From assembly GCA_016183565.1 (NCBI GenBank), contig JACPEJ010000004.1:41178-105177 (forward strand): a stretch of 64,000 bases of DNA, written 5' to 3'. Origin of the DNA: Candidatus Blackburnbacteria bacterium (GTDB lineage Bacteria > Patescibacteriota > Microgenomatia > UBA8517 > UBA10165). The number at the start of each line of letters is the position of its first letter. Within the stretch, counting starts at the first letter, position 1. Shown one piece after another: positions 2,051 through 63,571 of the stretch. The translations under genes and the position numbers were made by a program. The notes under the pieces are model-generated. The model had not been told where the DNA came from, made no database searches, and saw only the letters and a list, made by a program, of their open reading frames with translations.

Positions 2051-2954
2051 GCTCCAAATTGTACAACTCATTGTTAAGCCTGATACCAAAAAGCTTTTTT
2101 AAAATCCCAAAGCTAAGACTGGTGAAGCTATAAACTTCTAACCCGAAAGTGAGGTATCCTATATATCCTAGGATGGGCATTTCGAAAATTTTAAAAAATC
2201 CAAGGTAAGGAACCGAGTAAGTCCACTTTGGTAGGGAGTAAAAGTTCCAAAGTTCCCACCAGAATCCTGTAAACAAAGAGGCTGCTGCAACGGAAATGGG
2301 TATGGTCCATTTACCTTGTCGGATTAAGTTTAAAAATGAAGGTAGACCCAAACTGTAATTTAAGGGATCAACTAGAAGAAAAAGTGTTACCCAAACAAGG
2401 GGATAGCTTAAATTCGGCACAAAGAAAATTAGTAACAATGCTATGATTCCTAGTGTAAAAAGGAAAAATGGATTAATTTTTATCTTTTTACCTGTAATGG
2501 GTCTGATCCTTCTCAAAATTCCGTAGACCAAAAAAGAAACTGAGAGTATTGCTGGAACTACTGTTGAAAAACTTATTGAGGCCCGTAAAAAATATTCCGT
2601 AGGCTTAAAAAGTTCGGGGCCTATATATCTCCAATTCTGAGTATGTAAGTTTAGTAGCTCGAAAAACCACCAAAAAGGTATGGAGACTAAAAATAGAAAT
2701 AGAAAATTTGAATTCATTCTGGAGAGAAGCGAGTCGTGGAGCAATAACCCGGAAAAACCGTTTATGGTTATGATAAGTCCTAACCAAAGAGGGAAGAATG
2801 TGTATTCATAGAGACTAGCAAACCTTCCCCATGCAAAGATCCAAGAGAGAATAGTTAGTACTACACCAGAGATAAATAACTTAAAGTACAAGTCGTCGTT
2901 GCTTTTTCTAACGTCATCTTTCACTTTCTGCTTTTGTATATTATAGATAAGCAT
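2040..2954 (-). CDS. polytopic integral membrane protein, function unknown
   Basis: 304-aa ORF with about 8 hydrophobic helices; no recognisable catalytic motif. Confidence 0.45.
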   Translation of the reverse strand: MLIYNIQKQKVKDDVRKSNDDLYFKLFISGVVLTILSWIFAWGRFASLYEYTFFPLWLGLIITINGFSGLLLHDSLLSRMNSNFLFLFLVSIPFWWFFELLNLHTQNWRYIGPELFKPTEYFLRASISFSTVVPAILSVSFLVYGILRRIRPITGKKIKINPFFLFTLGIIALLLIFFVPNLSYPLVWVTLFLLVDPLNYSLGLPSFLNLIRQGKWTIPISVAAASLFTGFWWELWNFYSLPKWTYSVPYLGFFKIFEMPILGYIGYLTFGLEVYSFTSLSFGILKKLFGIRLNNELYNLEHEV

Positions 2955-3089
2955 GATGTAGCAATTGCAATGATTATTTAGAATGGTGTAAGAACCTTGT
3001 AATAATTTATCAGAACCTTACAGACAATTCACACTACTTTTTTAAATTTACCAATATGGCAAAAATCGCAACAGGATTGATGGGTTTAA

Positions 3090-3501
3090 GGAGAACAGGC
3101 TTCACCAGCTTTAGATATTCCTGGGGTTTCTGTTGTGGCACAAAACCTTGAGGTTCCGTGGGCGATTGCGTTTCTTCCTGATAGAAGTATACTGGTCACA
3201 GAACGTCCGGGTCGGGTAAGGATAATTGATAAAGATGGCAATCTTATATTTTCGTTTTGATTCGGATTTAGCAAAGGTAGAGAGAATTAACGAGCATTTT
3301 AAAAAAGAATTCGGTAGGATAAGAGATGTTGTGGTTGGTCCAGACAATATGCTTTATATGACGACAAGCAATAGAGATGGTAGAGGAAATCGTCTCGCGA
3401 ATGATGATACAATAATCTGTGATGATCAAATACAGGTTCTATTTCAAAGAGATGATGGAGCAAAACAAAGAGCTTTTTTCCGCGTTTCAAGAGATTCATG
3501 A
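3090..3501 (+). pseudogene. remnant of PQQ-dependent soluble sugar (glucose/sorbosone) dehydrogenase, YliI family
   Basis: N-terminal fragment (ASPALDIPGVSVVAQNLEVPWAIAFLPDRSILVTERPGRVRIIDKDG) ends at a stop near 3257; a C-terminal-like fragment follows in another frame (VVVGPDNMLYMTTSNRDGRGN...DDTIICDDQIQ). The roughly 250-aa central beta-propeller part is missing. Confidence 0.5.
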
Positions 3502-3754
3502 CAAATATGTAAAAGATCCTAAAAAATGGCAGGATGAGTTTAACAAGCAAGGAAGAAAGGTTTTAGAGATTATTCGCAAGTTTGAGAACAGACTTTGCTC
3601 GCGCACAGAAAGTGGTATGTATGGCAAATACTCGGCAAGTCTCTCGGAAAAGTTCCGAGCTGAGGTAAGAAGGCGGTTTCCTAAAATTGATTTTGTGGGA
3701 GTTAAAATCTCTGATCCTTTTGCGGAAAAACTGAAGCAGATACAACTTGATTAA
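3455..3754 (+). CDS. hypothetical protein
   Basis: ORF with no recognisable motif; start chosen at MMEQNKELF because the upstream part overlaps the dehydrogenase remnant. Confidence 0.3.
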   Translation: MEQNKELFSAFQEIHDKYVKDPKKWQDEFNKQGRKVLEIIRKFENRLCSRTESGMYGKYSASLSEKFRAEVRRRFPKIDFVGVKISDPFAEKLKQIQLD

Positions 3755-3799
3755 GTATAAGCCTGATAAATTTACACTGTATGATGTTGTGGTTATCTA

Positions 3800-3823
3800 A
3801 TATCATGATTCGAATCATGATAT
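3800..3823. repeat. 24-bp perfect palindrome atatcatgattcgaatcatgatat between convergent genes
   Basis: read directly; the sequence equals its reverse complement; no flanking U-tract. Confidence 0.6.
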
Positions 3824-3857
3824 CAAGAGAACAGCGCTTGGCCATAGTACTCATATA

Positions 3858-4088
3858 TTATCTATTATCGTCCAGATTCACGGTGTATCCAAGTGACTCT
3901 ATAATTTTTTTTATATCTTTTTCTTCTACCTTGGTTTCGTCGAACTCTACCTCACATTCTGCTTTTGCATAATTTGTAGAGGCGCATTTAACTCCTTCCG
4001 TGTTCTCCAATTCACCATCAATTAGTATTGCACATGCAGTGCAGTTTAACCCATCAACTTTGAATCTTTTCTTAACAATAGTTGTCAT
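3858..4088 (-). CDS. heavy-metal-associated (HMA) domain protein, CopZ-like
   Basis: GLNCTAC metal-binding loop in a ferredoxin-like fold of about 76 aa; the ATG overlaps the upstream stop as ATGA (translational coupling). Confidence 0.6.
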   Translation of the reverse strand: MTTIVKKRFKVDGLNCTACAILIDGELENTEGVKCASTNYAKAECEVEFDETKVEEKDIKKIIESLGYTVNLDDNR

Positions 4089-5125
4089 ATGACCTCTATT
4101 ATCCCACCATACATTCCCATAGAACAAGTGAAGGAATACTTCCCTCGTTTTTCAGGGAGGAATTCTACAGAATCAGTGCTGTTATTATTTAAAAGTTTTG
4201 TAATGCCAAACTGGGGTATTGTAAATGCCCTGGTACAACCAAGTTTGCTGTTTGTTTTCAAATTTAGTTTTACTGGTACTCCAGCTTTTACCCGAATATA
4301 CTCAGGGTCGTAGCTTGTGGGGTTAACTGAAATATCAACCACCTGAACACCATTGATCAGCTGTACATTAGAATTTGCAGCCAATACACTGCCACCTGCC
4401 GGATTTATAGCAGTTGCCAGAATATCCTTGGCACTTGATGTTAGCATTTGAGCTGTAAATGGTAAGCCAGCAATATTTAAGGCACCGTTTATGCTAGTTA
4501 GACCCATATATAAAACTCCAAAAGCTGCTATTTTCAAAAAGTTTTTTTTGAACAACCCATTTAAGGAGGATGTGATAAATCCAAATCCTGTAAAAAGTGG
4601 CATTGTGCCCAGGATAAACACACTCATTACAAGAGCACCTTTTACTGCGCTGCCTGTTGAGATTGCCAAAGCTTCCATGGCAAGAGTTGTTCCACAAGGA
4701 ATAAATAGAGTCATTGCTCCTAATAAGGCTGGAGCAAAGAGTTTTTCGCTTTTTGATTGGTTCCGAACAAGTTTGCCCAAAAACTTTGGTGGCTGGATCA
4801 CGGTATATCTAAAAATGGGGTGTACATTAAGAAGATTAAGTGCTACGGCAATCATGTACAAACCAGCAAGTGCCTGCATTATGATTCTTGTGCTTTGTGA
4901 TAAAGATAGTTTTTCGCCAAAAAGTCCGAGAATAAATCCAAGTATTGTATAAACGACTAGTTTAGATAGCAGGAAACTTAAGGTAGGCCAAATGGTGGTT
5001 CCCAATCGCGAAACTTTGTCGGATTTTCCGGTAGCTATAACGGATGCAAGGAGTCCTCCTTGCACAGCCATACAAGATAGACTTCCGACTGTTAAACCGG
5101 TTAGGAAAACTACAAATAAACTCAC
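4085..5125 (-). CDS. integral membrane permease fused to a C-terminal cupredoxin-like domain (putative copper handling)
   Basis: N-terminal multi-helix domain ([24 protein letters not shown]...); C-terminal beta domain with type-1 copper-like ligands (CTRAF...CSMGMYGG). Confidence 0.55.
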
Positions 5126-7386
5126 GAGATTTTAGCTTTTTTCAGAAGCAAAGAATTCGCCACCACAGATGTTGACGAAAAGGCCATTGCTACTGAGGCA
5201 AGAATTGGGCTTAATAAAATTCTAAAAATTGGGTAAAGAGCCCCCATGGCAACAGGTATGAGTATAACATTATACCCGAAAGCCCAAAAAAGATTAGATT
5301 TAATTGTTTTCATTGTTTTTTTAGAAAGCTTTATTGCTCCTACTACTGATCTTAAATCTTTATTAATAAGTGTAATATCTGCAGCCTCTATGGCAACATC
5401 TGTGCCAGTTCCCATTGCGATGCCAACATCAGCAGCAGCTAATGCTGGTGCATCGTTAATACCATCCCCTACCATCGCAACAACCTTTCCTTCAGATTGT
5501 ATCTTTCTTACTTCAGCTTCTTTTTGATCCGGTAATACTTCCGCTAGGACTCTTTTTATTCCAACTTCTTTTGCAATAGCCGTGGCAGTTCTTTTATTAT
5601 CTCCCGTAATCATAGCAACCTCGATATCTAATTTTTCAAGGGCTTTAACTCCTTCTTTTGCAGAATCTTTCAGTGTGTCAGCAACTGCTATCAATCCTAC
5701 AACTTTTCCTTTAAGTGCTAGGATCATAACAGTCTTTCCTTCACTTTCCAGCCTTGCAAGGGGACGCCTTGCAGGGCTAGTGTCGACTTTTTCTTTCTCC
5801 ATTAACCGGGTGTTCCCCAGTAGCACGCAATCCCCATGTACTTTGCCTTCTACGCCGTGCCCAGGTATGGCCCTAAACCCTTCGACTTTACTCAGAACAA
5901 GATTCTCTTCCTCAGCTTTAGTAACAATTGCTTCGGCAAGGGAATGTTCGGAGCCTTTTTCGATAGATGCTGCTAACTGTAGGATAGTTTGTAGGTTGTA
6001 GGTTGTAGGTTGTAGGGGCATTACATCTGTCACCTTCGGCTTTCCTTGTGTCAAAGTTCCGGTTTTGTCAAAAATAATTGTCTTAACTTTATGGGCTGTT
6101 TCTAAACTTTCCGCGTCTTTTATTAAAATTCCCTGTTCAGCACCTTTTCCAGTGCCAACCATAATAGCAGTAGGAGTCGCAAGACCCATTGCACAAGGAC
6201 AGGCGATAATAAGAACCGCAACTGTGTTCAGAAGTGCAAATAAAAGTGCAGGTTGAGGGCCAAAGTCATACCAAAGCACAAACGTGGTAGTTGCGAGTAT
6301 TATCACTACTGGTACAAAGTAGGAAGAAATAAGGTCAACTAGTTTTTGAATAGGAGCTTTGCTTGCTTGAGCTTCTTCAACAAGTCTTATGATTTGCGAA
6401 AGCATGGTTTCCATCCCCACTTTAGTGGCTTTATATGTAAATGTTCCGGTTTTATTTATAGTTCCTCCGATAACTGTATCCCCTTTTAACTTGTCGACAG
6501 GAATACTTTCCCCTGTAACCATTGATTCATCAATTGAGGACTCGCCATCTAAGATTGTTCCATCAACTGGTATTTTTTCGCCCGGTCTTACCCGAATAAT
6601 ATCACCAAGCTCAACTTCTCCTATTGGTACATCGACCTCAACTTTTCCCCTAAGAACTTTTGCTGTTTTGGCTTGGAGACCAATGAGTTTTCTTATTGCC
6701 TCTGAAGTGCCAGCGCGGGCTTTTGCTTCAAAATATCTACCTAAAAGAATTAGGGCGATAATTATGACCGGAACATCAAAATATGGCATAGGCTTAATTC
6801 CCAGTGCTTCGACTGTTTCGGGGAAAATAGTCACGAATACTGAGTAGCTGTAGGCCATTGTAGTACCAAGGCTCACTAGGGTGTCCATGTTTGCTGTGCG
6901 ATGTTTAAGAGCGGGGATTGCGGCTTTATAAAATTCCAGTCCAACCCAAAATTGGACTATTGAGGCAAGAACTAGTTGCACTAAAAAGTTTTTTAACACA
7001 GAGGGTGCAAAATCCATCAAAAATGGGAAGCTACCCCATAGAATCAAAACACCAGTAGCCAAAGCGAAAGCAACTTTTTTTCTAAGATTATCAAGCTCTT
7101 TCTTTTTTTGTTCTTTTTCTATTTCTGTGTCTTTTGCTGTTTTTTCCAAGAGCGCTTTGTACCCAACTTGAGAAACAGTAGTAATTATTTGCTCATCCGT
7201 GACTTTTTTGGGATCATAAGAAATATTCGCTTTTTCTGTTGCAAAATTTACCTGTGCTTCCCTCACCCCTTCTACTTTTTCCAAAGCACGTTCAATAACT
7301 CTTACGCAAGAAGCACAGTGCATACCTTTAATGAGAAAGGTTGTAGTGAGTAGGTTGTAGTTTTTAGGTTGTAGGTTGTAGGTCAT
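5122..7386 (-). CDS. copA: copper-translocating P1B-type ATPase
   Basis: N-terminal HMA GMHCASC; CPC motif ([19 protein letters not shown]); DKTGTLT phosphorylation site; [10 protein letters not shown] hinge. Confidence 0.9.
5750..5780. repeat. palindromic (ccttgcaagg)x2 element, copy inside copA
   Basis: agccttgcaaggggacgccttgcagggctag; encodes the in-frame insert LARLESEG in CopA. Confidence 0.7.
5989..6017. repeat. tandem heptamer repeat (ggttgta)x4 inside copA
   Basis: tgtaggttgtaggttgtaggttgtagg; translated in-frame as [13 protein letters not shown] in CopA. Confidence 0.7.
7339..7360. repeat. left 22-bp inverted repeat flanking the IVS-protein cassette
   Basis: ggttgtagtgagtaggttgtag; perfect reverse complement of 7752..7773. 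Confidence 0.75.
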
Positions 7387-7736
7387 TTCTGTAACACATT
7401 GATTAATTTATTAAGCATCTTCATTATTTCTTGAAGTAAATTATTTACACTATCGAATTCTACCTGACTGATGTAACCAATTTTCAATGCTATGAATAAC
7501 TGTGTTTCTAGCTCAGCACCAGAGCCAAACGATATCCTAAGAAATTGGATGTACTCTGCTTTATGTCCCCGTCTCTGACCCTCCGCAATATTCGAAGGAA
7601 TAGCAACAGTGCATCTTCTTATTTGAGAAATTAATCCATACAACTCATTCTTAGGAAAACTCTCTGTAATTCTATATGCAATAATGCATAGATCAATCGA
7701 TTTTTGCCATACTGTTAAATCTTTATAAGAATTCAT
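7383..7736 (-). CDS. four-helix-bundle protein (23S rRNA intervening-sequence protein family)
   Basis: 117 aa; family pattern [50 protein letters not shown]...[16 protein letters not shown]. Confidence 0.8.
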
Positions 7737-7751
7737 CCTCTCGCTCTTAAG

Positions 7752-7773
7752 CTACAACCTACTCACTACAACC
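7752..7773. repeat. right 22-bp inverted repeat flanking the IVS-protein cassette
   Basis: ctacaacctactcactacaacc. Confidence 0.75.
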
Positions 7774-7775
7774 TA

Positions 7776-8138
7776 CTACCTAACAACTATCTTCCCATGA
7801 TACATGTTCATCCCACAAGAATAGCCGAAAGTCCCGGGGTTTTGGGGAGTAATTTCAACTGTCACTGGTGTGTTTAGCGGCAGCTCTTTTCTGATTTTAA
7901 AATCCCCAAGAACAACTTCTGACAAACAACTACTCGGGTCTTTTCGGATAAAAGTTATTTTGGTTGTTTTGCCTTTGGGTATAACAACTGCTTCCGGCGA
8001 GTAACCTCCTTCAACAGTGATTTCAACGTTATCACTTGAAGCCACAACTTCTCTTTCTTTTTTACCCAAGAAAAACCAGTAGGTAAATGCAATTCCTAAT
8101 ATACCGAGGATGGTTACTATTACTTTGTCTGTTTCCAT
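7776..8138 (-). CDS. membrane-anchored cupredoxin-domain protein
   Basis: N-terminal transmembrane helix, then a beta domain ending ...GTFGYSCGMNMYHGKIVV (Cys/His/Met copper-ligand pattern). Confidence 0.55.
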   Translation of the reverse strand: METDKVIVTILGILGIAFTYWFFLGKKEREVVASSDNVEITVEGGYSPEAVVIPKGKTTKITFIRKDPSSCLSEVVLGDFKIRKELPLNTPVTVEITPQNPGTFGYSCGMNMYHGKIVVR

Positions 8139-10700: not shown

Positions 10701-10782
10701 GGATATCCCCCCTACAGGGATATATTCTACGGAAAATAGGTGGGTCTTGTCAATACAAACAAATTTGTATAATATATGGGGC
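10701..10782. promoter_or_regulatory. divergent promoter region with candidate CsoR operator
   Basis: GC-cored inverted repeat atatcccccctacagggatat; then ttgtca ... tataat-like hexamers ahead of the sigma gene. Confidence 0.4.
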
Positions 10783-15841: not shown

Positions 15842-17446
15842 CTAGTTGGGTAATTTCTTCTCCTCTTTCCCTCCAAAGATATCCTCTGCGACGCGGATGA
15901 TGTCTTCTTCGACTTCTTCAGTTAGGTTCGCAATATCTATGGCTCGTTTTTTTGAGGAAGATAAAAAGCAAACGATATGAATTTCTTTGCCAAAAACTTC
16001 TTGCGCGATTTTTTCAACCAGGCTACGATACGGGTCTTTTTCTATTCTTTCTTTGTGGAATTGGTAAAAAACTTCAAGCATTAAGTTGTTTCCATTAAGT
16101 CCTTGTGGTTTGGTTGCGCGCAGCAAGGCTTCAATCGAATGGTTTGTCTTTTTTGCCTGCTCCATAAGTTTTTTCCATTGTTCGTCGAGATTTAAAGTAG
16201 ACAGTGGAATTTTACCCCCTACGTCCTTCAAACTCTCTAAGGAGGGTGAGCTTGCCGACGAACGCTCGTCGCGATTGTCTGAGGCAGGCTCGAGCGGACG
16301 ACGTCGCCGCGCAGACGGCGCAGAGTCCCGAGAGCCAGTACCTTCTGAGGTAGCCGAGTTGAGCGACAAGTGAGTCGGTAACAAACCCTCCGACCCTCCG
16401 ACCCACTCAATCACAGCCATCTCCAAAGGCAGTTGTGGAATAACTGCAGAGGGTATGTCTAAAGCTGCTTTTGAGAAAAGTTCAATTGCAAATTTAACTT
16501 TTTCCACTCCTTCGAGGTCTTTTGCTTTCAGATCGTTCCTGCCGTCATTGGTAAATTCCGAAAGTAGAATATTTCTTAAAAGCCCGACTAGTTGGGATGT
16601 ATAAAGCCGGAGGTTAACTCCGTCTTTGACAATTATGTCTATTTCTTCTAAAGCTTCCTTTGTTTTTCCTTCACTCAGCGCGAGAAGGAGGTTCTCCGGG
16701 GTGCGGGAAACAGCAATGCTGTTTTTTACATCCTCCACTGTTATTTTCTTTTTTCCAAGAGATAATTGTTCTAAAATTTTATGTGCTTCTCTGAAACTTC
16801 CGTCAACTATTTTGACAATCTCGGATAGTGCATCATCGCTAACATTTATACCCTCACCTTCAACAACCTTTTTTAAAGAGGCAACAATCTCTAGAGAGTC
16901 AGCTTTCCTAAAGTTTATTATGGTACACCTGGAACGAATTGTGTCGGGAAGTTTTTCGGGGGCGGTTGTTGCAAGGATGAACAGGACGTGGTCAGGCGGT
17001 TCCTCTAGGGTTTTAAGAAGAGCGTTTGCGGCTTCTAGTGTTAACATGTGGGCTTCGTCGATGATGTAGACTTTTTTACTTGCCCCGGCTGGAGCAAGCT
17101 TTACTGCGTCACGCAGGGCTCGTACGTCATCAACCCCTCTGTGGCTTGCTGCGTCAATTTCCAGTACGTCCAGGCTTGCCCCACGAACGATTGCCTCACA
17201 CTGCGCACACTTGTTACAAGGCTCTATATTAGCGTTTTTCCCCTTTTCCCTTTTCCCTTTTCCTTCACAGTTGACGGCTTTCGCTAATATGCGAGCTGCT
17301 GAGGTTTTGCCACTACCCCTGGGGCCGGCAAAAAGAAAAGCATGGGGAATGTTACTACTACCAAGGATATTTTTTAGCTGTTCCCGGACTTCCGGAAGAT
17401 CAAGTTCTGAGATTGTTTTGGGACGGTATTTTAAATAAAAAGTCAT
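15842..17446 (-). CDS. dnaX: DNA polymerase III subunit gamma/tau
   Basis: Walker A GPRGSGKTSAARILAKAVNC; zinc module CNKCAQCEAI; AAA+ sensor motifs. Confidence 0.9.
   Translation of the reverse strand: MTFYLKYRPKTISELDLPEVREQLKNILGSSNIPHAFLFAGPRGSGKTSAARILAKAVNCEGKGKREKGKNANIEPCNKCAQCEAIVRGASLDVLEIDAASHRGVDDVRALRDAVKLAPAGASKKVYIIDEAHMLTLEAANALLKTLEEPPDHVLFILATTAPEKLPDTIRSRCTIINFRKADSLEIVASLKKVVEGEGINVSDDALSEIVKIVDGSFREAHKILEQLSLGKKKITVEDVKNSIAVSRTPENLLLALSEGKTKEALEEIDIIVKDGVNLRLYTSQLVGLLRNILLSEFTNDGRNDLKAKDLEGVEKVKFAIELFSKAALDIPSAVIPQLPLEMAVIEWVGGSEGLLPTHLSLNSATSEGTGSRDSAPSARRRRPLEPASDNRDERSSASSPSLESLKDVGGKIPLSTLNLDEQWKKLMEQAKKTNHSIEALLRATKPQGLNGNNLMLEVFYQFHKERIEKDPYRSLVEKIAQEVFGKEIHIVCFLSSSKKRAIDIANLTEEVEEDIIRVAEDIFGGKEEKKLPN
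17239..17265. repeat. tandem heptamer (ccctttt)x3 repeat inside dnaX
   Basis: ccccttttcccttttcccttttcc; encodes in-frame EGKGKREKGKN between the Walker A and zinc module. Confidence 0.6.
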
Positions 17447-17575
17447 TAGTTAAAATTTTCAATTTTTAATTTTTAATTTTCAATCAAATCTCAATGAACA
17501 AATTTTCAATGTTTTAAACATTTAAGAATTGGAAATTCATTGAAAATTGAGACTTGAAAATTGTAAATTTCCTAC
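17441..17575. repeat. AT-rich palindromic intergenic element (aattttcaat/attgaaaatt family)
   Basis: about 130 bp large imperfect inverted repeat built from aattttcaat units. Confidence 0.7.
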
Positions 17576-38128: not shown

Positions 38129-40198
38129 TTATGCTATACTCTTGGGCTGTTCTGGATTCCCTGGTTTTCTCCAAGAAGCCCACTTACATTTTGGATAGAG
38201 GGAACAACCGAAGAATCTTTTTCCTTTGCGTGTTTTTCTTGCTACAACTTCGCCTTTGCTGCAGTCAGGGCATTTTATCCCTAATTCTTCAATATAAGGG
38301 GCTGTCCAATCGCATTCAGGAAAACTTGAGCAAGATAAAAACTTCCCAAATCTTCCAACCCTTACAACCTGTTCTCCAACTTTGCATTTAGGACATTTAT
38401 CCCCTGTTTTTTCTACCTCAACATGTACTCTTTTTGCTGTTTTTTCTGTACTCTCCACCTTACTTTCAAATGGTTTCCAAAATTCGGAAATTATCGGTAC
38501 CCATTGCTTTTCGCCGTTTGCTATCTCGTCGAGATCATCTTCCATTCGGGCTGTGAATTTGTAGTCAACTATGTTGGGGAAATATTTGAATAAAAAGTCG
38601 TTAACAGCTATACCCAAAACAGTTGGAGAGAACTTTCCTTCTGTTTTTTCAACATACTGTCTTGTTTGAATTGTGGAGATAGTAGGCGCATAAGTTGATG
38701 GTCTGCCGATTCCTAGTTTTTCCAGTGTTTTGATAAGACTTGCTTCTGTGTATCTTGGAGGTGGTTGGGTGAACTTTTGTTGTGGATCCACTTTAACCAA
38801 TTGAAGAACCTCATCCTTTTCCACTTCAGGCAATTGAACAGACTCTTCTTCTACTTCCAGTTTGCCGTAAACTACCCTCCAGCCGGAAAACTTCATAATT
38901 TGCCCAGTAGCCGTTAATAAGTAACGGTTAGCTATGGAACTATCTTGCTTTATAGCTTCTACTTTTATGGTCGTCTCGTCAAAAACACTATCTGTCATTT
39001 GGCAGGCAACAAACCTCCTCCAAATAAGCCCGTACAGCTTTTCTGCATCGCTTCCTAATTCTTTTGAAAATTGCCTGCCCGCCAATTGCTTCGCTGCTAG
39101 GCGATAGCAGGCGGGAAAATTGAAAATTGAAAATTTGGCCACGTCAGTTGGCCTTACGGCCTCATGTGCTTCTTGCGCAAGTTTGTTTGAGGTTTTATAG
39201 AATTTTGGTTTTTCAGGCAAAAATTCTTTGCCATATTTTTTTTCAATGAAAGTACGTACAGACGAGACAGCTTCAGATGATAAATTCAAAGAATCTGTTC
39301 TGTGGTAAGTTATCAAGCCTTCTTCGTAAAGTTTTTGGGCAACTGACATTGTTTTTTTTGCGGACCAAAAGTAGGTTCTTGAGGCGGCTTGGGCCATAGT
39401 AGATGTTGTAAATGGCGCGGGGGCTCTCTTGTGAACTTCTTTTCTTTCGATGTCGGAGACTATATATTCGGCTTTGTGAAGATCGGATACCACTCCATCT
39501 GCTTGTTCCTTGTTTTTAACCTCCGCCTTTTTGTCATCTATTTTTACAAGTTTAACTATAAATTCTTCATTTTTGACTTTTGACTTTTGACTTTTGACTT
39601 GACAATATATCTCCCAATATTCCTCAGACTTGAAAGCCTCTATTTCTCTCTCTCGCTCGACTATTAATTTTACTGTAACGCTTTGAACACGGCCGGCTGA
39701 TAAACCTCTTCTTACTTTTCTCCAAAGAAGGGGTGAAAGTTTGTATCCAACAAGTCTATCTAAAACTCGTCTTGCTTGCTGGGCATGATAAAGTTTGAGG
39801 TCAACGTCTCGAGGGTTTTCTAAAGCATGTTTAACAGCTCCTTCTGTGATCTCGTGAAAAACCACCCTGTAGAATTTTGAATTTTGAATTTTGAATTTTG
39901 AACTTGAGCTTACCACGTCCTTGACGTGGTAAGCGATTGCTTCTCCTTCGCGGTCAGGATCTGTGGCAAGGTATATTTTTGAAGCTTGCTTTGCTTCTTG
40001 TTTAATCTTCCCGACTATGTCCTTTTTCTTGGTAACTAAGACATATTCAGGTTCAAAATTATGTTCTATATCAACACCCATTTTGCTTTTTGGCAAATCC
40101 ATAACATGCCCCATTGTGGGTTCAACCACGTATTCCTGCCCCAGGAAGCGACCTAGGGTACGCGCTTTGGTTGGTGATTCAACGATAATTAGATTCAT
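38129..40198 (-). CDS. topA: DNA topoisomerase I
   Basis: Toprim MNLIIVESPTKARTL; DPDREGEAIA; catalytic Tyr domain; C-terminal zinc ribbons CPKCKVGE.../CPDCSKGE. Confidence 0.9.
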   Translation of the reverse strand: MNLIIVESPTKARTLGRFLGQEYVVEPTMGHVMDLPKSKMGVDIEHNFEPEYVLVTKKKDIVGKIKQEAKQASKIYLATDPDREGEAIAYHVKDVVSSSSKFKIQNSKFYRVVFHEITEGAVKHALENPRDVDLKLYHAQQARRVLDRLVGYKLSPLLWRKVRRGLSAGRVQSVTVKLIVEREREIEAFKSEEYWEIYCQVKSQKSKVKNEEFIVKLVKIDDKKAEVKNKEQADGVVSDLHKAEYIVSDIERKEVHKRAPAPFTTSTMAQAASRTYFWSAKKTMSVAQKLYEEGLITYHRTDSLNLSSEAVSSVRTFIEKKYGKEFLPEKPKFYKTSNKLAQEAHEAVRPTDVAKFSIFNFPACYRLAAKQLAGRQFSKELGSDAEKLYGLIWRRFVACQMTDSVFDETTIKVEAIKQDSSIANRYLLTATGQIMKFSGWRVVYGKLEVEEESVQLPEVEKDEVLQLVKVDPQQKFTQPPPRYTEASLIKTLEKLGIGRPSTYAPTISTIQTRQYVEKTEGKFSPTVLGIAVNDFLFKYFPNIVDYKFTARMEDDLDEIANGEKQWVPIISEFWKPFESKVESTEKTAKRVHVEVEKTGDKCPKCKVGEQVVRVGRFGKFLSCSSFPECDWTAPYIEELGIKCPDCSKGEVVARKTRKGKRFFGCSLYPKCKWASWRKPGNPEQPKSIA
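39571..39603. repeat. tandem heptamer (ttttgac)x4 inside topA
   Basis: ttttgacttttgacttttgacttttgacttgac; encodes in-frame VKSQKSKVKN. Confidence 0.6.
39872..39903. repeat. tandem heptamer (gaatttt)x4 inside topA
   Basis: gaattttgaattttgaattttgaattttgaac; encodes in-frame SSSKFKIQNSKF. Confidence 0.6.
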
Positions 40199-62104: not shown

Positions 62105-62284
62105 ATGGGTCTTGTCTCGTTTTTAAAAGAGGTTCGGGCTGAATTATCTAAAGTAGTTTGGCCGACAAAGCAGCATACAATTCAAGCAACAATATTGGTT
62201 GTAGTAATATCAATATTTGTAGGCGTGTATGTAGGAGGACTGGATTTGATTTTTACGAGTTTGATGAACACGATACTTAAGTAA
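62105..62284 (+). CDS. secE: preprotein translocase subunit SecE
   Basis: 59 aa; MGLVSFLKEVRAELSKVVWPTKQHTIQATILVVVISIFVGVYVGGLDLIF; single TM; directly upstream of nusG. Confidence 0.7.
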   Translation: MGLVSFLKEVRAELSKVVWPTKQHTIQATILVVVISIFVGVYVGGLDLIFTSLMNTILK

Positions 62285-62316
62285 ATTCAAAAGTTAAAAG
62301 TTAAAAGTCAAAAGTT

Positions 62317-63018
62317 ATGGCTAAAGACCAATCCAAACTACAAGAAGACCAGATTGAAACTCCTGCAGAGGCTGCGGAGGAGGAATTGTCTGTTGAAAAA
62401 CCTGATGTGACCCCAAAAGACACGGGTATTTCTGAGCGTGGAGCTGGCTCAAAGCAACTTTCAGGTCATATTATTATTTCTGAAACCCGCGACCCTCGGG
62501 CCCGTTGGTATGTTGTCCATACAACTTCCGGACACGAAGCACGTGTTGCAGAATCTTTGAGACAAAGAATTGAAACAATGACTCTCGGAGAAAAGGTTTT
62601 TGAGATTTTGATTCCAACACAAGATCGAGTTGTTATAAGGTCCGGTAAAAAACTAATGGTTAAGGAAAAAATCTTCCCTGGGTATCTTTTGGTTAAGATG
62701 ATTTTGGATGAGGATGCTTGGCTTGGTGTGAGAACTACTCCTGGTGTTACAGGATTTGTGGGCGCAGGGAATACACCCACTCCCCTTTCAAACCAAGAAG
62801 TAGAAAATATAGAGAAGTTTATTTCAGCACCTGCAGCACGTTATAAGGTTCGATTCTCAACAGGTGAGGCAGTGAGAATTACAGACGGGCCATTCGCAGA
62901 ATTTTTAGGAACCATAAACGAAATGGATGAAGAGCGAGGAAAAGTTAAGGTTATGGTTTCGATCTTTGGAAGAGAAACACCTGTGGAATTGGATTTTCTA
63001 CAGATAGCGAAGGTGTAA
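62317..63018 (+). CDS. nusG: transcription termination/antitermination factor NusG
   Basis: NGN domain (RWYVVHTTSGHEARV); C-terminal KOW (GEAVRITDGPFAEFLGTINEMDEERGKVKV). Confidence 0.9.
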   Translation: MAKDQSKLQEDQIETPAEAAEEELSVEKPDVTPKDTGISERGAGSKQLSGHIIISETRDPRARWYVVHTTSGHEARVAESLRQRIETMTLGEKVFEILIPTQDRVVIRSGKKLMVKEKIFPGYLLVKMILDEDAWLGVRTTPGVTGFVGAGNTPTPLSNQEVENIEKFISAPAARYKVRFSTGEAVRITDGPFAEFLGTINEMDEERGKVKVMVSIFGRETPVELDFLQIAKV

Positions 63019-63069
63019 ACAGGTTGTAGTTTGTAGGTTTTAGGTTGTAGAAAAATTCTGCCTAATAAA

Positions 63070-63498
63070 ATGGTTGCAAAAAAAGTAAAAATCATTGTCA
63101 AAATTAATTTACCAGCAGGAGAGGCAACTCCTGCTCCTCCTTTGGGTCCAACCTTGGGTCAACATGGAGTTCCGATAATGGATTTTGTTAAGGCTTACAA
63201 TGAAAAAACTGCTGATCAAAAAGGCAATATTGTTCCTGTTGTTATAACAATATATGAAGATCGAAGTTTTGAGTTTGAAACAAAACTTGCACCGGTTTCT
63301 GAACTAATAAAGAAAGAGCTTAATCTTCAAAAAGGAAGCGGAGAACAAAAGAAAAATATAGTTGGAAAATTAACTTCTGATCAGATCAAAAAGATTGCAG
63401 AAGCTAAATTACCGGATTTGAATACTGTAGATGTTGAGGCTGCGATGCACATAGTAGAAGGAACAGCAAGGAGTATGGGGGTGAAAGTAAGTTCGTAG
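63070..63498 (+). CDS. rplK: 50S ribosomal protein L11
   Basis: [42 protein letters not shown] matches the L11 N-terminal domain. Confidence 0.9.
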
Positions 63499-63571
63499 GT
63501 TGTAGTGAGTAGTAAGTAGACTATTCGAAAACAGTAATCTACCACCTACTACCTACAGCCTACAACCTAAA
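63497..63571. other. long imperfect hairpin of ctacaacc-type repeats in the rplK-rplA spacer
   Basis: ggttgtagtgagtagtaagtagac ... ctaccacctactacctacagcctacaacc; related to the repeats flanking the IVS-protein gene. Confidence 0.5.

Follow-up and report, generated by a model that had tools for sequence, protein, structure and literature searches.

A CsoR-type copper operon in a 64,000-nucleotide stretch of DNA (the window) from a Candidatus Blackburnbacteria bacterium (candidate phyla radiation/Patescibacteria; assembly GCA_016183565.1, contig JACPEJ010000004.1, positions 41,178 to 105,177 of the forward strand) contains a small gene for a four-helix-bundle protein that is enclosed by two inverted arrays of a seven-nucleotide repeat. 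We refer to this gene and its product as FHB (S23p/IVP; PF05635/TIGR02436). All genes between 3.8 and 10.9 kb of the window are encoded by the minus strand. In its 5′ to 3′ direction, the operon contains csoR, the genes for a DUF1573 protein, a 317-aa protein, a DsbD-like membrane protein and a cupredoxin (8138–7776), FHB (7736–7383), copA (7386–5122), and the genes for a DsbD_2–cupredoxin fusion and an HMA protein. The FHB gene (7383–7736, minus strand) encodes 117 aa of the 23S_rRNA_IVP family. Directly upstream of it lies the cupredoxin gene (7776–8138, minus strand), the 120-aa product of which is 100% identical to a protein from a metagenome-assembled genome (MAG) labeled "Candidatus Blackburnbacteria bacterium", and copA (5122–7386, minus strand) encodes a Cu-exporting P1B-type ATPase of 754 aa. 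The copA ATG (7386–7384) overlaps the FHB stop codon TGA (7385–7383) as ATGA. An earlier reading of the locus from its letters alone (the sequence-only reading) had correctly located the FHB gene between the cupredoxin gene and copA, but it had taken the cupredoxin gene to lie downstream of copA, which is wrong for a minus-strand operon. Its suggestion that the element separates copA from the genes downstream fails likewise, as the element parts the upstream cupredoxin gene from copA and supplies the copA start codon. The element is an operon-embedded S23p/IVP four-helix-bundle cassette, a promoter-less open reading frame (ORF) of about 117 codons between inverted heptamer arrays, and it is the same module as that found in ORF-bearing 23S rRNA intervening sequences (IVSs), here residing within an mRNA operon.

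The cassette is delimited by a perfect 22-nt inverted repeat, ggttgtagtgagtaggttgtag (7339–7360) and ctacaacctactcactacaacc (7752–7773), just as the sequence-only reading had described it; the repeat extends to 26 nt at 96% and to 44 nt at 77%. Its arms are composed of GGTTGTA-type heptamers in at least three head-to-tail copies with a period of 7, and the 14-mer GGTTGTAGGTTGTA, which represents two tandem units, occurs 15 times in the window with up to two mismatches, compared to 0.46 occurrences expected. The 5′ arm, TAGTTGTTAGGTAGTAGGTTGTAGTGAGTAGGTTGTAG (7752–7789, minus strand; core 22-mer 7773–7752), is a G/U-rich array in which the first TAG is the cupredoxin stop codon (7778–7776) and TAG or TGA stops are present in all three frames. 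A spacer of 15 nt, CTTAAGAGCGAGAGG (7737–7751, minus strand), with a purine-rich, Shine–Dalgarno-like GAGAGG connects this arm to the FHB ATG. The 3′ arm, CCTACAACCTACAACCTAAAAACTACAACCTACTCACTACAACC (7339–7382, minus strand; core 22-mer 7360–7339), is a C/A-rich array that is translated as copA codons 2 to 16, and the first 15 copA residues are thus array-encoded. The repeat had been said to supply the copA ATG and about the first 17 codons; its translation as the copA N-terminus stands, while its extent is codons 2 to 16 with the ATG overlapping the FHB stop codon.

The cassette is probably transcribed from outside. A sigma-70-like site, TTGACA-18-TAGAAT (10724–10753, minus strand), which matches the consensus at 11 of 12 positions and is the best match in the region, lies upstream of csoR and is likely the promoter of the whole csoR...copA operon, as judged by a consensus scan in which the total number of sites was not above that in shuffled sequence. 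No site comparable to it was detected before FHB in the same scan. Neither in nor beside the cassette was a transposase or recombinase found, and the neighboring proteins contain no transposase domain.

The assignment of the 117-residue product to the four-helix-bundle family was borne out by its profile scores and its closest structure. The protein matched PF05635 with 130.6 bits (cut-off 33.8; E 3.4e-38) over residues 5–110 of 117, TIGR02436 with 124.9 bits (cut-off 24; E 1.5e-36), and NF008911 with 146.1 bits (cut-off 137). Its closest solved structure is 2GSC, XCC0516 (E 5e-23), followed by 2RLD (E 9e-8); both contain five chains, and 2GSC has been described as a homopentamer (PMC4990558). 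The family motif G..R...S...N..E, as given in a study on cas operons (PMC3936711), is also present. Based on its sequence, the ORF can be assigned unambiguously to PF05635/TIGR02436. Another candidate identity, that of the Avd accessory protein of a diversity-generating retroelement (DGR), came from the homology of Avd and PF05635 proteins (PMC10053308) and from weak matches to bAvd PF22296 (28.4 bits) and DivGenRetAVD NF033474 (32.1 bits). However, both scores are far below their cut-offs (40 for PF22296 and 80 for NF033474), the neighbors are the cupredoxin gene and copA with no adjacent reverse transcriptase, and the arrangement recurs in relatives without one. The sub-cut-off scores and the lack of an adjacent reverse transcriptase effectively refute this identity, the chance of which we regard as negligible.

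The description of the family in the sequence-only reading as normally encoded inside 23S rRNA IVSs turned out to reflect a historical name and no rule. None of 183 related loci was found to lie in rRNA, as assessed by Rfam on 10 loci and by conserved 16S and 23S probes on all of them; the only 16S gene, that of L121, starts about 2 kb downstream of FHB. The 64-kb window likewise contains no rRNA.

The architecture of the cassette is shared by most of the family. We surveyed 149 non-redundant FHB loci with complete flanks, taken from species-representative genomes, metagenomes and viral contigs and covering the candidate phyla radiation (CPR), Acidobacteriota, Bacteroidota, Verrucomicrobiota, Chloroflexota, Spirochaetota, Firmicutes and Proteobacteria. 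RNA duplex energies of arm pairing were implausibly large even for shuffled sequence and were replaced by an ungapped inverted-repeat score, which compares the 100 nt upstream of the ORF with the region around its stop codon. With a threshold of at least 11, locus-specific flanking inverted repeats were present in 77% of the loci, compared to 9% of cross-locus flank pairs. A period test requiring at least 17 of 21 lag-matches per flank was carried out for lags of 3 to 12. Lag 7 was found in 48% of upstream and 46% of downstream flanks, compared to 0.8% of distal control segments, and it was the only lag enriched; among the others, only lag 8 registers, in about 1% of flanks. The median 5′ arm ends 29 nt before the ATG, the median 3′ arm starts at the stop codon (–1), and the core is 25 nt. 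The sense-strand sequence of the 5′ arm is rich in G+T in 94% of the loci.

The heptamer unit itself varies by lineage (AGTGGTT, AGTGACG, TAGTTGG, CAGTAGC, TAGCTTx and others), and it diverges together with the FHB protein. Cross-locus arm complementarity (score of at least 11) was found in 92% of pairs with more than 80% protein identity, in 60% of pairs with 65–80% identity, and in 9–14% of pairs below 55% (Spearman correlation of arm complementarity with protein identity 0.23, p 1e-126). A general rule that the 5′ arm has stops in all frames and the 3′ arm is open was tried and rejected; it holds for the GGTTGTA lineage but not generally, as 70% of the units have stops in the sense orientation and 55% in the antisense orientation.

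FHB genes are embedded in the transcription units of their hosts. The upstream neighbor is co-directional in 95% of the loci, the downstream neighbor in 88%, and both are in 84%, compared to about 58% expected from a baseline of 0.76 per junction. The median gaps between FHB and its neighbors are 63 and 47 nt, just enough room for the arms. The arrangement is also seen on a plasmid of Nostoc sp. C052, in which FHB lies between four copies of AGGGAAC and seven copies of GTTCCCT among co-directional genes. The 45 plasmid records with FHB are mostly from Nostocales and are concentrated in Nostoc and Calothrix. In two viral contigs, L186 (903–3986; IMGVR_UViG_3300043089_000180) and L187 (103–1617; IMGVR_UViG_3300001682_000446), the whole FHB cassette with both arms is found inside a large methyltransferase-like ORF on the same strand. 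This ORF stays open in another frame through the FHB gene of about 400 nt, with the arms being translated (SEQWVVISGQ / QTIHYSLTTNHYS), which suggests either overlapping genes or in-frame insertion of a cassette under selection.

Homologues of FHB with 65–79% identity are abundant in CPR bacteria, and a metagenome scan for close relatives returned at least one locus with at least 69% identity among the matches listed. The slot between the cupredoxin gene and copA is filled by FHB in the same order in five further lineages: L002, L006, L007, L175 (a Levybacteria MAG) and L177. In all five, FHB is bracketed by inverted heptamer arrays of the GTAGGTT/GTAGTTT type. The sequence-only reading had proposed a comparison of this junction in related genomes, and no FHB gene without flanking repeats turned up among these copies (inverted arms in 5/5). 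The detailed sequence of the arms and their register relative to the ORF ends vary among the five. The 3′ array of L002, L175 and L177 lies within the last FHB codons and ends where copA begins, at its ATG; that of L006 and L007 makes up the first codons of copA.

Three related operons have the cupredoxin gene followed directly by copA with no FHB gene: L181 (Daviesbacteria), L182 (Staskawiczbacteria) and L183 (Taylorbacteria), where the spacer is 3 nt long and copA has a short N-terminus, MTHTKKIFSIKGMHC. In neighbor-joining trees of copA and of the cupredoxin, operons with and without FHB are interleaved. The empty junctions and the interleaved trees together indicate that the cassette is a unit of gain and loss. 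Furthermore, L173, a cassette outside cop operons with FemAB-like and PIG-L genes as its neighbors, groups within the cop-linked FHBs. Filled operons differ by 23–37% in CopA, and the insertion of the cassette is therefore not recent. The idea of an IVS-like module transposed into a protein-coding operon consequently fits in part: the cassette behaves as an IVS-like unit of gain and loss, as the three empty junctions indicate, but it did not arrive recently, its slot being shared by lineages with copA proteins that are 63–77% identical. No target-site duplication was seen when the filled junctions of the window, L002, L006 and L007 were compared with the empty ones of L181 to L183, and near-identical loci showed no polymorphism in heptamer copy number or position.

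The occupants of this junction are not restricted to FHB. In L181 an unrelated hairpin repeat of the GTCATTGCGAGCGA...GCGAAGCAATC type (3864–3960) fills the 97-nt FHB-less spacer between the cupredoxin gene and copA. In L175 the peptide ARSEATKQS, which we take to be the typical translation of an L181-type hairpin repeat, is encoded in-frame in the copA linker, at the same place as a heptamer array in the copA gene of the window. If the L175 peptide is indeed that repeat, the cupredoxin–copA spacer and the copA linker are insertion hot spots for short structured repeats.

The recurrence of FHB at one operon position raises the possibility that it is a domesticated component of the copper operon in Microgenomates-type CPR, serving as a chaperone or in copper storage or regulation. 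FHB occupies an identical operon position in six lineages, and translational coupling links its stop codon to the start of copA. Among the cop-linked loci, FHB identity is 66–78%, compared to 63–77% for copA and 54–81% for the cupredoxin; FHB is at least as conserved as its neighbors and is therefore under purifying selection. However, the equally related cop operons L181, L182 and L183 do without FHB, and relatives with 69–76% identity reside in unrelated operons (L173 with its FemAB-like and PIG-L genes, L179, L013, L014 and L093). Across the family, cassettes occur in any kind of operon, including cas operons (PMC3936711). The correlation between FHB and CopA distances is weak (Mantel test, r 0.46, p 0.11), and inspection of the sequence by eye, with no formal scan made, revealed no metal-binding motif. 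We therefore consider a dedicated role in copper handling quite improbable.

We slightly favor, on the analysis as a whole, a mechanism in which the cassette is a passenger of its host transcription unit. The paired arms would offer RNase III a duplex that it could cleave, and the FHB ORF would hand translation on from the cupredoxin gene to copA. First, the cassette would be transcribed passively from the promoter of the host operon. Second, the arms would zip in the transcript into a duplex of at least 22 bp, looping out the ORF and providing a natural substrate for RNase III, as for the Coxiella IVS; such a substrate is plausible for the arm duplex. Third, the arrays, being fused to the translation signals of the neighbors, would wire the cassette into operon expression. 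Initiation at copA would depend on termination–reinitiation after FHB at the AUGA overlap, and the stem or its cleavage would antagonize copA translation unless ribosomes hold it open. Finally, purifying selection on the FHB protein makes it probable that it acts on the cassette encoding it or on cognate heptamer arrays.

Folding of the predicted 476-nt transcript is consistent with the passenger mechanism. The arms pair and enclose the ORF in both the minimum free energy fold and the centroid fold (dG –124.9, z –4.64, with 0/100 shuffles as good), and terminal closure was predicted for all cop-linked relatives as well. Several observations nonetheless weigh against it. The predicted pairing persists after shuffling of the 3′ flank, as GU-rich and CA-rich sequences pair in any order, and the fold is thus not specific evidence. 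At the DNA level, complementarity between the arms is weak in several of the cop-linked relatives (scores of 8–12). Mismatches between arms show no excess of G:U over A:C (91 vs 116), although such an excess would be expected if selection maintained an RNA helix. A cut within the 3′ arm would part the copA start codon from the body of the gene, which would be costly for a resistance gene, and the stem would face competition from ribosomes that terminate on the cupredoxin gene and elongate on copA. In Coxiella, the S23p protein has not been detected (PMC4990558).

The lack of a G:U excess indicates that arm complementarity may be kept by something other than selection for RNA pairing, either by concerted evolution at the DNA level or by a need of both arms for the unit recognized by FHB or a host factor. 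A different explanation is accordingly that the arms are recognition arrays at the DNA or protein level, in which one heptamer in opposite orientations is read by the FHB pentamer or a host enzyme for mobility or maintenance of the cassette, much like terminal inverted repeats, and RNA pairing is a by-product. The mismatch pattern just described, the strict polarity of the arms relative to the ORF (94%), the co-divergence of arms and protein, the patchy presence of the cassette at the cupredoxin–copA junction relative to the copA and cupredoxin trees, and the nesting of L173 among cop-linked FHBs all fit this explanation.

The distribution of further arrays fits it as well. In 426 kb from 71 loci with a well-defined unit, 34 extra arrays of the locus's own unit were found, compared to 4.6 expected from the units of other loci; these solo arrays and ORF-less hairpins are mostly not beside another FHB-like ORF. 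The window has four such sites. The first (5987–6014, plus-strand coordinates) consists of four GGTTGTA-type units inside copA, which, read on the minus strand, encode part of the variable linker after DKTGT..GKPKVTD; the array replaces this linker, leaving its length the same as in orthologues. The second (53240–53262, plus strand) is a short CTACAAC-type array inside def, the peptide deformylase gene, and encodes PQLQPTAY. The third (63022–63049, plus strand) is the solo direct array GGTTGTAGTTTGTAGGTTTTAGGTTGTA between nusG and rplK, and the fourth (63491–63567, plus strand) is an ORF-less hairpin between rplK and rplA (dG –29.8, z –5.6), the 5′ arm of which shares 18 nt, GTAGGTTGTAGTGAGTAG, with the FHB 5′ arm. 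The rplK stop codon TAG is the first TAG of this last array. The arrays in copA and def had escaped the sequence-only reading. Hairpins had been claimed for both ribosomal spacers; the one between rplK and rplA folds as claimed, but the nusG–rplK repeat is one-armed and does not form a hairpin (z –0.24).

Other observations speak against recognition arrays: there is no transposase or recombinase in or next to the cassette, no target-site duplication between filled and empty junctions, and no copy-number or position polymorphism among near-identical loci. FHB is without a known catalytic motif. Moreover, the window holds only one FHB gene but also has heptamer arrays of unrelated units (CTTTTGA, ATTTTGA, CTTCACC, AAAAGTT and TTTTCCC), several of them in-frame in coding sequences. 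We regard the recognition arrays as a possible but doubtful explanation.

A more far-reaching proposal is that FHB proteins are the trans-acting partners of heptamer arrays, each variant reading its own 7-nt unit. The FHB gene would then be the master copy and the scattered arrays of the same unit its dependants, together making up a two-component selfish or regulatory system similar to RAYT/REPIN (described below). This proposal would fit the co-divergence of arms and protein, the approximately 7-fold enrichment of same-unit arrays nearby, the four extra GGTTGTA sites in the window, and the lack of a G:U excess. It would also fit the concentration of FHB on Nostoc and Calothrix plasmids and the in-frame cassettes of the viral contigs. 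Nostoc and Calothrix are the taxa in which the short tandemly repeated repetitive (STRR) sequences were first described. We hold the proposal to be rather unlikely; if true, it would give S23p/IVS proteins a function and STRR-type repeats an origin.

Compared to the known systems that it resembles, the cassette shows both shared and distinct features. First, ORFs of the PF05635 family have been found in 23S insertions (PMC4990558) and, in CPR bacteria, also in 16S insertions (PMC11270868), and ORF-bearing 23S IVSs are also present in Leptospira, Xanthomonas and Brucella. In the Coxiella IVS, located in helix 45 of 23S rRNA, GACAGAT heptamers precede the S23p ORF, the terminal repeats pair over 28 bp, and RNase III cleavage has been mapped to the first heptamer (PMC4990558). 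The Coxiella IVS and the element in the window share the PF05635 family, tandem heptamers directly before the ORF, a long stem of terminal repeats around the ORF (28 bp in Coxiella, 22 bp perfect in the window), and the lack of a promoter of their own (PMC4990558). The element in the window differs in its residence in a polycistronic mRNA between protein genes and not in 23S helix 9, 25 or 45, and in its arms, which, unlike those of rRNA IVSs, are fused to the stop and start codons of the neighbors and partly translated. Furthermore, its FHB gene is under purifying selection and coupled to copA, whereas the Coxiella ORF is decaying and apparently untranslated. Second, PF05635 genes interspersed in cas operons have been reported, and a Cas-related role was considered for them (Zhang and Ye 2013, PMC3936711). 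Like FHB here, they are co-oriented insertions in unrelated operons and have the GxxRxxxSxxxNxxE motif; the passage of that report on these genes does not describe flanking heptamer arms.

Third, heptamer repeats resemble the arms in their 7-nt unit, their mostly intergenic positions near start codons, their occasional convergent pairs, and their occasional in-frame presence in ORFs, as well as in having stop codons in one orientation and being translatable in the other. The STRR sequences of cyanobacteria are tandem repeats of such heptamers. TAACTGA repeats have been reported in Beggiatoaceae, cyanobacteria and Bacteroidetes (PMC4679880), and GGGAATC repeats, with 70 convergent pairs, in Xanthomonas (PMC4692102). 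Text searches of these two papers returned no mention of a tie to a protein gene, whereas here the arrays bracket FHB and the unit co-varies with it.

Fourth, the likeness to REPIN/RAYT, in which doublets of repetitive extragenic palindromes (REPs) are associated with a tyrosine transposase, is organizational only: one conserved gene lies between inverted short repeats, and further copies of that repeat are scattered through the genome, singly or as hairpin doublets. Unlike FHB, RAYT is a Y1 (HUH) transposase, and REPs are imperfect palindromes of 20–40 nt and not tandem heptamers. Fifth, bAvd has a homologous four-helix-bundle fold, but the locus has no reverse transcriptase or template and variable repeats, and the scores of FHB are below the Avd cut-offs. 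Sixth, of the features of a transposable element bounded by terminal inverted repeats, or of a miniature inverted-repeat transposable element, the cassette has the terminal inverted repeats but neither target-site duplication nor transposase. In the literature, our coverage of which was incomplete, so that a prior description is possible, we found no general description of non-rRNA FHB genes as cassettes between inverted heptamer arrays, and neither the co-variation of unit and protein nor the recurrent occupation of the cupredoxin–copA junction in CPR bacteria.

We know of no function proposed with success for the proteins encoded by 23S rRNA IVSs since the early 1990s, nor, to our knowledge, do the bacterial heptamer repeats (STRR, TAACTGA, GGGAATC) have an origin or partner. 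The present locus and the comparison of 149 loci suggest that these proteins and repeats belong together: the FHB gene usually forms one unit with two inverted heptamer arrays, found in host transcription units of every sort, with the rRNA IVS as an apparent special case. The locus in the window is an ordinary member of this widespread cassette. Its value lies in a very clean view of the architecture, which makes the questions about IVS proteins and heptamer repeats testable. There are also consequences for annotation, as the arrays supply the stop and start codons of neighbors and up to 15 N-terminal residues and occur in-frame in essential genes as well, which gene callers and alignments will misread.

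Heptamer arrays may break assemblies too. Most of the close FHB homologues come from contigs of about 1 kb, and assemblies breaking at the flanking arrays would explain this length. Some loci have more than one FHB gene. L177 carries a second one (1043–1423), which follows a thioredoxin gene, has the opposite orientation and lies 2 kb from its cop-linked FHB, and L033, L037 and L046 each have two within 4 kb. In L179, a Woykebacteria-type FHB (P0055) lies in a stretch of about 2.5 kb without called genes (2288–4839), which is not rRNA by Rfam.

Within the window, in-frame arrays of several units (GGTTGTA, CTTCACC, TTTTCCC, CTTTTGA and ATTTTGA) are found in coding sequences of housekeeping genes, comprising those in copA (5987–6014) and def (53240–53262), one in fmt (54175–54202), and others at 17235–17262, 39562–39604 and 39867–39907. 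Two further arrays, both intergenic, are unlike the FHB arms: an AATTTTT-type array at 17450–17485 and four copies of AAAAGTT at 62283–62318, directly upstream of the nusG ATG.

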